Below are positions 45,406-59,232 of a stretch of 64,000 bases of DNA, one piece after another. The position numbers were made by a program, and so were the translations under genes. Numbering within the stretch: the stretch's first letter is position 1; the number at the start of each line of letters is the position of its first letter. The stretch lies in contig JADGCN010000004.1 of the NCBI GenBank assembly GCA_015228975.1, positions 4,028 to 68,027 on the forward strand, given 5' to 3'. The notes under the pieces were generated by a model. The model ran no database searches. It was given only the letters and a program-made list of their open reading frames with translations, and had not been told where the DNA came from. The stretch comes from Magnetococcales bacterium (lineage in GTDB: Bacteria; Pseudomonadota; Magnetococcia; Magnetococcales; UBA8363).

Positions 45406-45957
45406 TCAATGTGTTTTCACCTGGGTCACGACACTGTCTGTAAGTCTTCCGGTCCATGCCATGGCAAGGGCCGATAGCAGAAATATGCAGTGGATGATGC
45501 ACTGCCACTGCGCCACGTGTGGCGTAACATGCTCAATATTAACGAAGGTTTTCAATAGATGGACGGATGAGATGCCAATCAAGGCCATGGCCAGTTTGAC
45601 TTTCATGATGTTGGGGTTGGAGTGACTGAGCCATTCCGGACAATCCGGATGCTGATCCACTCGCAAGCGGGAGACGAATGTCTCATAACCCGCAACGATA
45701 ATCATGACCAACAGATTTGATATCATGACCACGTCAATCAGCCCTAAAATGAAGATAACGGCATCATTCTCACTCATGTTGGGCTTATGAAATATTTCAA
45801 CGAGCTCTACAAAAAAGCGATAAACATAGTAGCCTTGGGCGACGATCAGGCCAAAATAAAGAGGTGCTTGCAACCATCGGCTGAAAAAAATGAAATCAGC
45901 CAAAGGCTGTGTCACAGGTTTTCCAGGTGTTGGGCCAGAATGATGGTTTACCGTCAT
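45406..45957 (-). CDS. YqhA/UPF0114 family membrane protein
   Basis: FSRWLQAPLYFGL, LIDVVMISNLL, GYETFVS, KVKLAMALIGISSVHLL. Confidence 0.9.
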   Translation of the reverse strand: MTVNHHSGPTPGKPVTQPLADFIFFSRWLQAPLYFGLIVAQGYYVYRFFVELVEIFHKPNMSENDAVIFILGLIDVVMISNLLVMIIVAGYETFVSRLRVDQHPDCPEWLSHSNPNIMKVKLAMALIGISSVHLLKTFVNIEHVTPHVAQWQCIIHCIFLLSALAMAWTGRLTDSVVTQVKTH

Positions 45958-46052
45958 GGGAGCCGATTCCCTCGGATAAAAGTGAAATACTGTTTGGATG
46001 AGTAAATGTTATCCCACAATCCTCGCAAAACACCAGGCAAAAAAAGAAAAAT

Positions 46053-46167
46053 GAATACACCGATGGTTTCTTGGGCAGGGAAAATCCTCAAGATTACGAT
46101 AGTGGTCTAGCCAATTCCTGTATCCCGAAGGTGCCTGGCGGCAGGTACGTTTTGGCCAGGTCGAGAA
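46053..46167. repeat. Direct repeat, left copy (115 bp)
   Basis: Matches 47545-47659 with 8 mismatches counted by eye; contains a copy of the last ~24 codons of the YhaN-like gene. Confidence 0.95.
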
Positions 46168-46290
46168 AAGGTACACCCACCACTACGGCTAACCTTCTCT
46201 TTAACTTGTCATAATATCATTATAAATGCATGACAAGATCAAATAATATTAATAATTATTATCTGGCGTGATGTGCATAAATCATAAAAG

Positions 46291-47205
46291 TCATGGAGTC
46301 GCATGCCACAGCGGATGATCTTTCCATTGTTCAGGAAGCCCCATAGACACGCGCCAAGTGGAATGGGTAGCAATGGGGGTGATCAGGTCTGTAAGATGGT
46401 GTTGCCAATGTTCCCCCAAACCCATTTTCGCCAGCAATTGGCGGAGAATCAGCAGTATGTAAAAAATACGGTCATGCCGGGGCGTCACAGGTGGCTGCCA
46501 ACGGGGATCATGACTGCGATGAGGTTTGATCGCCAGTTCCCGATTCCACAACCGACCATGATGGGCGCAAATGTTACGAATATAAGTTAATGCATGAAGG
46601 TCGTTACTGAAACGCATATGATGGACACCAAAGTGACTGGAGACCATTTTTCGGTCTTGGTTTGTCATCCCCTGATAGAGTATTGACAGTGCCCCCATGC
46701 TCACCACTTCGGTAGCCATCCAGATAGGCAGCGTTGGAAATCCTTGATAGTTGTTCCGAAAATGCAGGATAAATGGTTCTTTGGACCGCTTTGCCTCTTC
46801 GTCGATACCTGCAAGCCATTTGTCATGCTGGAATTTGGGGCTGAAATGAGCCGGATTGGTATGGGCGAAGGTTCCATAAGTAAGTGCCAAGTGATAGGTA
46901 ATCTGGGTCCGAACAGCAATTTCCACTCGTTCCAAGGCATCCATCACCATCAGTCGCAGGTGGCGGTCAAATTCATAGAGGGTAATGATGTTTGTAAGGT
47001 TGTTACCAGTTCTGAACGCATCGGTAACCATACCGTCAGAATTTCGGGCACGAAAGGAATGCCAATAGCCACTCAGACGATAGTAGTTGATCGCCGAAAG
47101 TTTTTCCCTGGCATCATTGCGGTTGCCAATGTCCAAGCCTCGGGAAGCAAGGAGTTCCAACTGATCATCAAGGTTGAGCGGTTGCTTGGTGTAGCACTTA
47201 GTCAT
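46291..47205 (-). CDS. Abi_2/AbiD/AbiF-family HEPN ribonuclease
   Basis: QLELLASRGL, INYYRLSGYW, LYEFDRHLR, ERVEIAVRT, PIWMATE, HEPN RNICAHH. Confidence 0.9.
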   Translation of the reverse strand: MTKCYTKQPLNLDDQLELLASRGLDIGNRNDAREKLSAINYYRLSGYWHSFRARNSDGMVTDAFRTGNNLTNIITLYEFDRHLRLMVMDALERVEIAVRTQITYHLALTYGTFAHTNPAHFSPKFQHDKWLAGIDEEAKRSKEPFILHFRNNYQGFPTLPIWMATEVVSMGALSILYQGMTNQDRKMVSSHFGVHHMRFSNDLHALTYIRNICAHHGRLWNRELAIKPHRSHDPRWQPPVTPRHDRIFYILLILRQLLAKMGLGEHWQHHLTDLITPIATHSTWRVSMGLPEQWKDHPLWHATP

Positions 47206-47230
47206 GTTGCCCTTCAGATCGAAGGGCAAC

Positions 47231-47283
47231 AAAAAAGCCACCGTGGTAACGCATGCCGAAACAGAGGCGTGGTGGCTATGTTA
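47231..47283 (-). ncRNA. Candidate abiF-like RNA (antitoxin or leader)
   Basis: AGCCACC...GGTGGCT stem enclosing ACGCCTCTGTTTCGGCATGCGTTACCAC, then a U-run, immediately upstream of the Abi gene. Confidence 0.65.
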
Positions 47284-47289
47284 GAAACA

Positions 47290-47318
47290 AGTGTACGCAA
47301 TTTTCCGGCCATAAACAA
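47290..47318 (-). promoter_or_regulatory. Putative sigma70 promoter for the abi RNA and gene
   Basis: TTGTTT-N17-TACACT, predicting a start near 47283. Confidence 0.5.
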
Positions 47319-47544
47319 GTCGCTGTTTTCCATATCCGGCATTTTTACAGGAAAAAGATCAAAATAACCTTTCATACTCCTTGCAACGCGCTTATCGCAA
47401 AACAAACTATCCATAAAGAAGTAAAACTCCGGAATAAACGATCACAAAACATCGTATCCATAACCATGTGAGCCTTCAGATTATCGAAAAAAATTTTCTT
47501 AGGCAAGCACACAATATTTGGAATGGTGACATTTTCCAATGCAC

Positions 47545-47659
47545 GAATATACCGATGGTTTCCTGGACAGGGAAAAACCGCAAGGTTACGATAGTTGTCT
47601 AGCCAATTCCTGTATCCCGAAGGTGCCTGGCGGCAGGTACGTTTTGGCCAAGTCGAGAA
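47545..47659. repeat. Direct repeat, right copy (overlaps the 3' end of the YhaN-like gene)
   Basis: Offset of 1492 bp from the left copy. Confidence 0.95.
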
Positions 47660-50600
47660 TATGCGGGTGATGGGTGAAATAAATCACCTGACGCTTCAGT
47701 TGCGCCAAAACTTCCAAAGCCGCAGTCGCACGCCGGTCATCAAAATGCACCAAAATATCATCCAGGATCATGGGCATCGGCTGCCGACTCTCATCCATGA
47801 GATCCAAAGCCCCGAGACGTAACGCCAAAAACAATTGATCCCGGGTACCATCACTCATCCCCTCCACCTGAACCCGGGTACCATCGTGGCGAACCCCGTA
47901 AAAATATGGCTTGGCCGTATCAAAATCCACTTTTAAAGAGGTAAAGGAATCCAAAGTCAATCTGCGAAAGAAATCACTGGCTCGCGAAAGTATCGGCCCT
48001 TGATTGTGTTCCTGAAAACGATGGATCACCTGTTGCAACAAGGTTGCCGCCAGAGTCAAATGAACATGATGCTCCGCCAAATGTAACAATTCATTGCGGG
48101 TATCCTCAAAATCCTGTTGCACCAAAGCCGCCGCATTGCCCCCGGCATACTGTTCCAACTCCTGGGTTTTGGCCCCCAACGCCTGGTGCAACGCCTGCAA
48201 CTCCCGGGTCACCTCGTCCATCTCGCCTTTCAGGTAGTGGCTTTTTTTCTGAACATCCTCCATGTCCTGCCCGGCGATCCGTTGCAACACCTCTTCCAGC
48301 CCCAGTCCCCCGGCGTTATCCAGGATCTCTTTTTCACACGCTTCAATCGCTTGCAACACCTCCTCGCGCCGCTTGAACCGATCTTCCAAAGATTCCATGG
48401 CCGCACGATCCTGAACGCCATACCGTGCCGCAATCTCACGGAACCGCTGCTGGTCACTTTGCCAGTTTTCCTCGGTTCGACGCAGCATGGCCAACACCTT
48501 GTCCTGACGTTCCATCCCTTGCCGCTGGTGAGTGATCCCCTCCACAGCCTGATCCAAGCGCCCCTTGAGCCCCTCCAACCACAGGTAGGACGATTCGGTC
48601 CCCTCGTGGTGATCCCATGCCTCCCCAAGAAACAATACCAAATCCCGCACCCCCCCCATGAAATGATCCCGACGCCGCTGTATCTCGCGAATACGTCCCA
48701 ACAACTCCTCCCGTTGGCGAAATACGCTCCTCAAGGTGCTGAACATTTCCAAAAATTCACCGCTTGCCTCAACCAGCATCCCCGATTCATGGCCAAAACG
48801 ACCGAGAATGTTTTGCCAATTGTGATCATTGGCAACCATTTTTCGTTGATTGTCTGCCAAACGGGCACGATGCCTTAGGATCAATTGTTCTATTTCCGCC
48901 AACCGCTGACGCGCCGCCTGATGCCGTTGAGCCTGAACGCTGACATCGGCGACAAACGTCTCCCATCGATTCAGCAATCCGGCAACACCCTCCCCCGCCC
49001 GCATCCCCGGTCCCCCCAGGGACAAAACCATCGCATTGGCCTGTTCCAGGGTCTCCGATAACTTGCGCTGCATATGGGCACCCTGTTGCTGCCAATGATC
49101 CGCTTCCCCTTTTAAGCGGATAATCTCGGTGCGCATTTCCGGCCACCCTGTCATCTCCAAAGGGTTCCCGGCACTCACCACACCCAGCGCCTGCCACAGG
49201 GTGTGCCATTCCAGCAGCAAGTTTTTCAATTTGTCGGCCACTTCCCGCCCCAATGCCACCCCTTCCTGGCGTTTTCGCGATAGAAACCCCCTTCTGTTTT
49301 CCAATTGTTGCCATTTTGCCAAACGATCGGCTTCACGCAGGCGGGCATCGGCCAACTGATCGGCCCGCAGCAGGAGCCTTTCAAAGATGATCTCTCGCGA
49401 CGGCCCATCCACCACCGCCGATTCAGAACCCGGGTACCCTGCCAAGCCATGCTGCCGAATCAACTGCCATACGCGATCCCGTTCATCCCGAGCTTCCCGA
49501 ACCGCCGAATCGGTGGGTGGCACACCCCCAAGCGCCTCCTTTAATTGTTGGCGCTCAAGCTCCAACTGCTGCCACTCCTGCTCCCATTGTTTCCGTTGAT
49601 CTTCCGCCTGACGCTGATCCTCCAGTAAGCGGCGATACGCATGCGCGTAACGTTCCAAGACATCGTTGCCAGGGGGACGACACCCTTCCAAGGCTGGCAA
49701 CGAGTCGCGCCAGTGGGGCAGCAGGCGCCATTTTTCTTCGGCCTGACGCTGCGTCGTCGCCGACTTGTCGAACGCCCGATGACAGCTCTGTTCCCAATCC
49801 AAAAGTTGCCGCAACTCAGGCAGACGGCGAATCAAATCCGTCACATCCCGCACCTCGCCCAAGGCCTGTATCTCAGCCCGTTTCACCTGTGCATCCCGTT
49901 CCAAATCGCCCAGGTTTCTCTGTAACGACTCCTCCTCGGTCAACAATTGCGGCCTGGTTTCCAGCAATTTGCGCAATGTTGCCAAACGACTGGCATCGGG
50001 CAACAGATTCAAATCCACCGTGCCACCCTGGCCACCCACCTGCCGCCACAAATCGCCCTGTTGCTGGTTCAACGCCTCCAATTTTTGTTCCAATACCGGC
50101 AATTGGTTATCATTCTCCCGGATCAGTCGCACTTCGCGGTATAAATCATTGATACGCGCCGCCAAGGGCGGCAGTTTTTCCTCGAACTGCAACGCCGTCA
50201 GCTCATTCGCCAACGTCGCCAACTCCTTTTGGTGAATGGCCCGTTCCCGTTCCGTCACCACCAAACGTTGGCTTAAAGCCAGCCGTTCGACAATGATCTC
50301 GCGATTCAAGGGCGGGATCGCACCCAATTCCTCCAGGACGCGGCGGTAATGCCCCAGACGCGCTACCAGGGGAGCAAGCTGCAACAGGCGCTGCAACTCC
50401 TCCATTACACGGCGTTTTTGGTACGATATCTCGTCCATGGCGGCAATTTTTTGCTGCAACGCCTCCTGCTCCGCCCGATGCCCGGCCCAGGTGGACTGCG
50501 CCAGGGTCAAACGCCGCTGCTGGTCGGACAACTCCCGCAAACGATTATGAAGAATATGAATTTTTTGGTTCTTGCCCCGATGTTTATAAAGGCTTTCCGC

Positions 50601-58960: not shown

Positions 58961-59044
58961 AGGCCGGACTGTTACTGTGCAGCCTGGACACCCTGCACGA
59001 AAAAGTTGACAACAAGGCGATGATCCATTAGCGTGGGCTACGTT

Positions 59045-59207
59045 TGTTGCAACCAGGTATCATCAAGGAACACGGTGCAATTCCGTGACGGACCCGCCGC
59101 TGTAACCGGGGACACCTGTCGCAAGGCTTTGGCCAGTCACTCTCTACGCTTTATCGGGGGGAAGACGCGACAAGGTGGTCGATCCGGGAGTCAGAAGACC
59201 TGCTTGG
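59045..59207 (+). promoter_or_regulatory. Cobalamin (B12) riboswitch
   Basis: AGGAACACGGTGCAATTCCGTGACGGACCCGCCGCTGTAA, GGGAAGAC and B12-box GAGTCAGAAGACCTGC. Confidence 0.92.
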
Positions 59208-59232
59208 CTGCCATGTTACGGAATCTATTGGT

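Follow-up and report, generated by a model that had tools for sequence, protein, structure and literature searches.

A likely AbiF-family type III toxin-antitoxin module in a Magnetococcales bacterium, and toxin-free abiF-type RNAs in phages as candidate decoys

Introduction

The AbiF family has already been solved structurally and tested. According to two reviews (PMC13064643, PMC12737573) of PbAbiF-AbiFr (PDB 8VZ6; Zilberzwige-Tal et al., Cell 2025), the toxin is a dimer in which each subunit carries one RNA, and the active site is blocked by bases of the RNA's bulge. Mutation of R210/H215 is reported to inactivate PbAbiF, AbiF is said in review to process its own RNA, and the AbiD/F proteins are placed close to the ancestor of Cas13. 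In C. difficile, the accessible parts of the work of Saunier et al. (bioRxiv 10.1101/2025.04.15.648962; PMC12373285) describe one promoter from which mostly a short RNA, RCd22, is made; this RNA neutralises AbiF in cis as well as in trans and co-purifies with it, and R/H mutants of the toxin are non-toxic. RCd22 is described there as having several 3' ends, and its terminator is a separate hairpin after the motifs (10.1101/2025.04.15.648962). Lactococcal AbiD/F members are described as protecting against phage, and in the available part of Bidnenko et al. (2009; PMC2661086) the leader hairpin of abiD1 lowers translation.

The RNA partner is represented in Rfam by RF03085, whose consensus consists of an outer stem, a 1-nt bulge, a 3-bp inner stem, a loop that starts with CUCU and a 3' bulge. 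Phage abiF RNA is also in print; the accessible parts of the sources give an sRNA of unconfirmed role in cyanophage S-CREM1 and three phage genomes in Rfam.

A first-pass annotation, made from the sequence alone, had proposed an AbiF-type toxin gene with an upstream structured RNA in a Magnetococcales bacterium, and had described AbiF as an RNA-neutralised toxin akin to a Cas13 ancestor, which is indeed published. Here, we analysed this locus, its homologs and related RNAs in bacterial and viral genomes.

Materials and methods

The sequence analysed (the window) is a stretch of 64,000 nt from Magnetococcales bacterium assembly GCA_015228975.1, contig JADGCN010000004.1, forward strand, positions 4,028-68,027. 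The survey of upstream regions started from 181 loci with a protein match; upstream DNA was usable at 163, and 155 of these loci were distinct. Two models of the RNA were used. Model R1 was built from 67 stem-bearing homolog RNAs that had been picked for short loops, the window RNA included. Since these training RNAs make R1 circular for the window RNA, model R2 was built only from 12 RNAs that passed the Rfam cut-off. The viral sequences of IMG/VR were scanned, because solitary RNAs had occurred in bacteria, with two exact patterns, one for the class of the window RNA and the other for the Rfam-like class.

Results

An AbiF-family protein and its surroundings

The features of the locus are collected in Table 1. 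The promoter TTGTTT-N17-TACACT, the stem, the U-run, the 304-aa ORF and the RNICAHH motif of the first-pass annotation were all found in their places on the minus strand.

Table 1 Positions of the features in the window
Feature	Position	Strand	Basis or remark
Putative -35 box TTGTTT, weak	47313..47318	-	Sequence; spacing in homologs
Putative -10 box TACACT	47290..47295	-	17-nt spacer from -35; position in homologs
abiF-type small RNA, predicted antitoxin	47231..47283	-	Fold, RF03085 layout, model R2, covariation
Outer stem AGCCACC/GGTGGCT	47277-47271/47242-47236	-	Sequence, fold, covariation
Inner stem CGC/GCG	47269-47267/47252-47250	-	After one bulged A; encloses 14-nt loop
7-nt 3' bulge of the small RNA	47249-47243	-	
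U-run, six T	47236-47231	-	Sequence
Perfect 10-11 bp hairpin over the GAAGGG ribosome-binding site (RBS), up to the start codon	47205..47231	-	Fold
abiF/Abi_2 gene, 304-aa HEPN ribonuclease toxin (predicted activity)	46291..47205	-	ATG 47205, TGA 46293-46291
HEPN motif RNICAHH (R210, H215)	46558..46578	-	Alignment
115-nt direct repeat, upstream copy	47545..47659	-	Last codons of yhaN-like AAA_27 gene and ~40 nt past its stop
115-nt direct repeat, downstream copy, 93% identical	46053..46167	-	Orphan duplicate of the yhaN-like gene end

The protein belongs to the Abi_2 family (Pfam PF07751, E 1.6e-54, 185.5 bits against a cut-off of 25.6) and matches AbiD of PADLOC (E 3.8e-74); NCBIfam had no family for it. 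PbAbiF (8VZ6) was the sole PDB match by sequence (E 2.6e-33) and also the sole match of a fold search at E <= 0.001 (TM 0.85, with a predicted model of pLDDT 92), and R210 and H215 align to R210 and H215 of PbAbiF. R210, N211, C213, H215 and H216 were invariant across 39 aligned homologs. These results bear out the proposal of a 304-aa Abi_2 protein with an intact HEPN motif. As far as PbAbiF is covered by the reviews, the two systems share both catalytic positions and a single upstream ncRNA, but their proteins are 27% identical in the structural alignment and come from different host groups. The homolog search gave 4465 proteins among 5259 candidates, and the closest named homologs were from Magnetococcales.

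Several other assignments were rejected. Cas13 or Cas13e does not fit a protein of 304 aa with one Abi_2 domain, no CRISPR array in 45500-48000 and one RNA copy in the window. ToxIN and AbiQ-type type III systems have tandem RNA repeats upstream and a toxin of the ToxN fold; here no tandem repeats were found upstream, and there was no ToxN match by fold or sequence. With regard to a protein antitoxin, the earlier view that no such ORF is present held, in that none was convincing: an antisense frame of 207 codons is broken by stops in 9 of 10 homolog loci, and a 66-codon frame over the promoter was set aside by eye, since an indel in genome G005 rules against it.

The abiF copy lies outside any defence island, and its neighbours are a UPF0114 gene and genes which we take to be yhaO- and yhaN-like, the domain matches being Metallophos and AAA_27. 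Elsewhere in the window, a cobalamin riboswitch was found on the plus strand (59038-59221, 79.8 bits).

A 115-nt direct repeat, overlooked in the first-pass annotation, brackets the abiF cassette with its two copies. A mobile repeat family was rejected, as only two copies occur in the genome and the repeat is present in one of seven other genomes of the genus. In the closest relative (G005) the repeat occurs once, and 3.8 kb of further genes precede the UPF0114 gene; the abi gene of this relative (L208, G005:C123, 2519-2975) carries an internal deletion, with the promoter intact and the RNA unchanged. None of four further relatives has abiF after yhaN. The abiF site after the yhaN-like gene is a variable slot, and the repeats resemble an integration scar, with no integrase seen beside them. 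There is a hint that this slot collects defence genes. In G003, another genome of this genus, an ORF like a Pycsar effector (PycTM) lies just 3' of the yhaN-like gene (L209, 2064-2618).

The promoter and the upstream small RNA

The promoter (47318-47290) matches 7 of 12 consensus bases and did not appear in the list of a consensus scanner, and transcription is predicted to start near 47283-47282. Among 91 homologous RNAs, 65 have a TAnnnT box whose end lies 10-15 nt ahead of the stem (12 nt in the window RNA), and 52 of these 65 have a TTG 16-18 nt further upstream. Thus, despite a sequence below consensus, the promoter call is supported by -10 and -35 positions that recur among homologous RNAs.

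The window RNA has every part of the RF03085 consensus, the CUCU loop start included, but its loop and bulge are 14 and 7 nt long in place of 11 and 6. An Infernal search against the Rfam abiF model, suggested along with the first-pass annotation, failed: there was no match at E <= 10 and none at the 37-bit cut-off, and a search of the genome with RF03085 did not return the RNA. Two weak matches to unrelated lncRNAs in Rfam (E 3-6) were regarded as chance. Therefore, we call the RNA abiF-type and not a member of RF03085; it is a divergent abiF homolog with a longer loop. An RNA that differs from it only in the loop (L008) reached 33.6 bits on RF03085, and the near-identical RNAs L029 and L030 passed at 46.5 bits. 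With R2, the window RNA was the only strong match in the 64-kb window (29.7 bits; next best 10.9).

Folded alone, the 54-nt RNA reached -15.7 kcal/mol (z -2.4). The outer stem with its U-run was absent from the terminator list of the consensus scan; it is not a canonical terminator hairpin because it encloses 28 nt. A GC stem followed by a T-run was found upstream in 129 of the 155 distinct homolog loci, compared with 25 of 775 base shuffles. The outer stem was paired in 98.3% of a plain alignment and 99.4% of a model-fitted alignment of 93 distinct RNAs, the latter with two-sided changes at all seven pairs. The inner stem paired in only 42% of cells in both automatic alignments, because differences in bulge length shift the register. 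In a test anchored on the outer stem, the inner stem matched at all 3 bp in 79 of 92 RNAs (27.4 +/- 3.7 in 2000 shuffles), and it occurs as six different triplet pairs among the homologs. It should be noted that these stem statistics are not probabilities, since related sequences are not independent. Both stems covary, the inner one by the anchored test only, and the abiF motif that had been expected upstream of the Abi_2 gene is there in its architecture, though divergent.

The C. difficile system is similar, in the accessible text, in its Abi_2 protein with RNxCAH, one promoter for the RNA and then the toxin, and an abiF-motif RNA. However, it has two motifs, a separate terminator and a place in a prophage lysis module, whereas the window locus is chromosomal and has one motif that ends in the U-run.

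A stable hairpin over the ribosome-binding site

The RBS hairpin, which the first-pass annotation had overlooked, has a predicted energy of -18.8 kcal/mol (z -6.8). Only one of 1064 start regions of long ORFs in the genome is as stable, and this set probably includes abiF itself. The hairpin is retained in the consensus of nine close homologs, and start regions reach -10 kcal/mol in 9 of 20 abi genes from the same order, against a background of 5.4%, and in 13 of 126 more distant homologs. A terminator was rejected because no T-run follows the hairpin on either strand; the hairpin is predicted to be a translation brake. Compared with PbAbiF as described in the reviews, it would be an added feature. 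Lactococcal AbiD1 shows a similar order in the available text (PMC2661086), in which a terminator is followed directly by a stem-loop that hides the RBS, but its hairpin was published at -9.1 kcal/mol, a value from a different program, and no phage activator is known for the window locus.

Distribution in the genome and the order

A homolog was found in 18 of 61 related genomes. Model R1 identified 33 places in 56 genomes of the order, many of these RNAs belonging to its training set. Among them, 27 precede an abi gene or its remnant (17 a full gene and 10 a broken gene or stub), 5 are solitary and 1 is a plain terminator. At 10 of the 27 abi-linked sites, the RNA is intact and the toxin is broken, as would follow if the cost lay in the protein. 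Type I restriction genes adjoin 10 of 19 homolog loci with scanned flanking ORFs. At three loci (L003, L168 and L171), two abiF-type RNA units lie 150-250 nt apart before a single toxin gene, and the two units of L003 are of different sequence classes.

A direct scan of genome contigs with one protein returned one locus only. The genome has one paralog (C92:2182-3157; L020, L182), which is 34-35% identical to the window protein and falls in a separate clade of a quick tree of 86 proteins; it has its own RBS hairpin and an RNA of a different class (29.1 bits on RF03085). An ORF resembling a type I methyltransferase lies upstream of this paralog. The same genome also has a solitary abiF-type RNA of the paralog's class (L215, C173:6347-6405) with a near-consensus promoter and, in place of a toxin, a response-regulator/PAS-like gene after it; this RNA could act in trans. 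In two other genomes, an abiF-type promoter and RNA stand directly before a non-toxin gene, which is an AAA_15/AAA_21 ATPase for L236 (G015:C4:370152-370209) and subunit R of a type I restriction system for L234 (G016:C51:126390-126447).

Toxin-free abiF RNAs in phages

The two patterns matched 75 IMG/VR records (25 and 50; L246-L320) in 63 distinct contexts. An Abi profile run over 1.5 kb around the 75 sites found a toxin at 2 and none at 69, and 4 were too near the contig end; in whole records, PF07751 was found in 2 of 75 and was lacking in 73, including all 15 records that are at least 90% complete. Run over 401 bacterial genomes, the two patterns found 26 sites (none with the reversed control), of which 24 have an Abi gene within 1.5 kb. 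This contrast between viruses and bacteria is indicative only, because the bacterial set is dominated by the order from which the patterns came. Whole Abi modules are also found in viruses (59 Abi loci).

The solitary copies look, on sequence grounds, like real abiF RNAs. R1 recovered 58 of 61 of them, base pairing is kept in 15 of 16 at stem positions that the pattern leaves free, and 7 of 12 tested phage copies passed RF03085. The viral L264 RNA is identical over a 48-nt core to the bacterial L171 RNA, whose toxin shares 52% identity with the window protein, and the viral L246 RNA closely resembles the window RNA. For the flanking ORFs (156 at 40 loci), 27 of 50 submitted matched PHROGs, and the neighbours of solitary RNAs include head, tail, portal, terminase, lysis and replication genes. 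None of seven cultured phages examined encodes PF07751, and five of them pass RF03085 at 50-58 bits (L321-L323, L326, L327), namely Aeromonas PZL-Ah8, Acinetobacter Acj61, Mycobacterium phage Thibault, Salicola CGphi29 and Synechococcus S-SZBM1. The other two, Bacillus phage SBSphiJ1 (L324) and Staphylococcus phage SA11 (L325), have an abiF-like loop on a weaker stem at ~1200-1240; these BLAST matches are below the Rfam and R1 thresholds and were not counted. By BLAST, this loop type was found in 30 Bacillus and 35 Staphylococcus phage records.

In our analysis, there is about an even chance that unrelated phages, among them T7-like and T4-like phages, cyanophages and a mycobacteriophage, have captured the abiF antitoxin RNA, the class of the window RNA included, and would express it alone to keep the host AbiF off during infection, as a widespread RNA counter-defence against AbiF. 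The simplest reading of the toxin-free copies would be candidate decoy antitoxins, like pseudo-ToxI of phage TE (PMC3594212) and the Racr RNA anti-CRISPRs (PMC10651486), which are described in the accessible parts of these sources as solitary phage-borne RNA parts of a host defence system. The difference is that pseudo-ToxI and the Racrs have ToxN or Cas targets and were tested, whereas the phage abiF copies are candidates that would target AbiF. It is possible, though on the unlikely side, that the phage copies, instead of being decoys, are terminators that were borrowed or leftovers from abiF modules that were lost. A T-run is present in 52 of the 61 solitary viral copies and a -10 box at the usual distance in only 21, which would suit a terminator, but some copies have no T-run (L323, L327), and the loop and bulge letters are kept well enough for 44-58 bits on RF03085. 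Leftovers would be in line with the solitary copies that arise in bacteria too (5 of 33 places) and with the fragmentary nature of most IMG/VR records; on the other hand, a toxin occurs in none of the 15 near-complete records, and the copies sit, with no Abi_2 remnant, among the core genes of unrelated phages, those for head, tail, replication and lysis.

Discussion

The locus very probably constitutes a type III toxin-antitoxin defence module, made of an AbiF-family HEPN protein and an abiF-type RNA. Gene family, predicted fold, catalytic motif, RNA architecture, covariation and the fixed position of the RNA are shown by our analysis. The RNA-antitoxin model of the first-pass annotation agrees with the published work on PbAbiF and on C. 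difficile AbiF.

Expression, RNA binding and phage protection at this locus are inferred from homologs. The putative promoter would make mostly the ~50-nt RNA, as most transcripts may end at or near the U-run, and rare read-through would yield the toxin mRNA. On this mRNA, the hairpin would hide the ribosome-binding site and keep translation low, as in lactococcal AbiD1. The ~50-nt RNA is likely to bind and block the predicted ribonuclease, which by analogy with its homologs would be a homodimer whose subunits each hold one RNA. If the RNA were lost or the hairpin opened during phage infection, the RNase might then be set free, leading to RNA cutting and growth arrest.

Termination at the U-run is the weakest step of this mechanism, because RCd22 relies on a terminator of its own beyond the motifs and, according to a review, AbiF processes its RNA. 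The 3' end of the small RNA might instead be cut from a longer leader by AbiF or a host RNase, which we regard as rather unlikely and which would be compatible with the antitoxin model. In addition to the self-processing given in review and the several 3' ends of RCd22 in the accessible text, the 28 nt enclosed by the stem speak for such cutting, but in most homologs, and in the bulk of the toxin-free viral copies (52 of 61), the stem runs straight into a T-run.

It is improbable that the module is a selfish addiction element or a decaying cassette of little anti-phage value to its host. The window ORF is intact with all invariant residues, although 10 of the 27 abi-linked copies in the order are broken, that of the closest relative (G005) included, and a homolog is present in only 18 of the 61 related genomes. 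Anti-phage activity of the C. difficile system was not shown in the accessible parts of Saunier et al., whereas lactococcal AbiD/F members are described as protective, and the toxin-free RNA copies kept by phages suggest that the AbiF family costs phages. Finally, it is very improbable that the RNA is nothing more than a cis-acting attenuator that limits expression together with the RBS hairpin until the block is lifted by a phage factor or low temperature, with no protein-RNA complex: the U-run directly after the stem, the very stable RBS hairpin and the AbiD1 leader, where such a block of terminator and RBS hairpin was first described (PMC2661086, in part), would agree with it, but the 3-bp inner stem and the unpaired loop and bulge letters are conserved and a terminator needs neither, homologous RNAs are described as neutralising in trans and co-purifying with the toxin, and copies without a toxin are maintained in phages.

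As a type III toxin-antitoxin module, the window locus adds a member to the published AbiF family and is one more module of its kind. It also indicates that the 37-position abiF model of Rfam misses many members with longer loops. With regard to the phage RNAs, we found no proposal of anti-AbiF decoys in the accessible parts of the literature searched, a search that stopped short of the text of Zilberzwige-Tal et al. (Cell 2025) and the supplement of Weinberg (2017). The decoy reading is directly testable with cultured phages and a plasmid toxicity assay. If it is true, the phage copies would form a new RNA-based class of anti-defence beside pseudo-ToxI and the Racrs, the 'abiF sRNA of unknown function' of S-CREM1 would gain a role, and AbiF would be indirectly supported as a genuine barrier to phages in many hosts.
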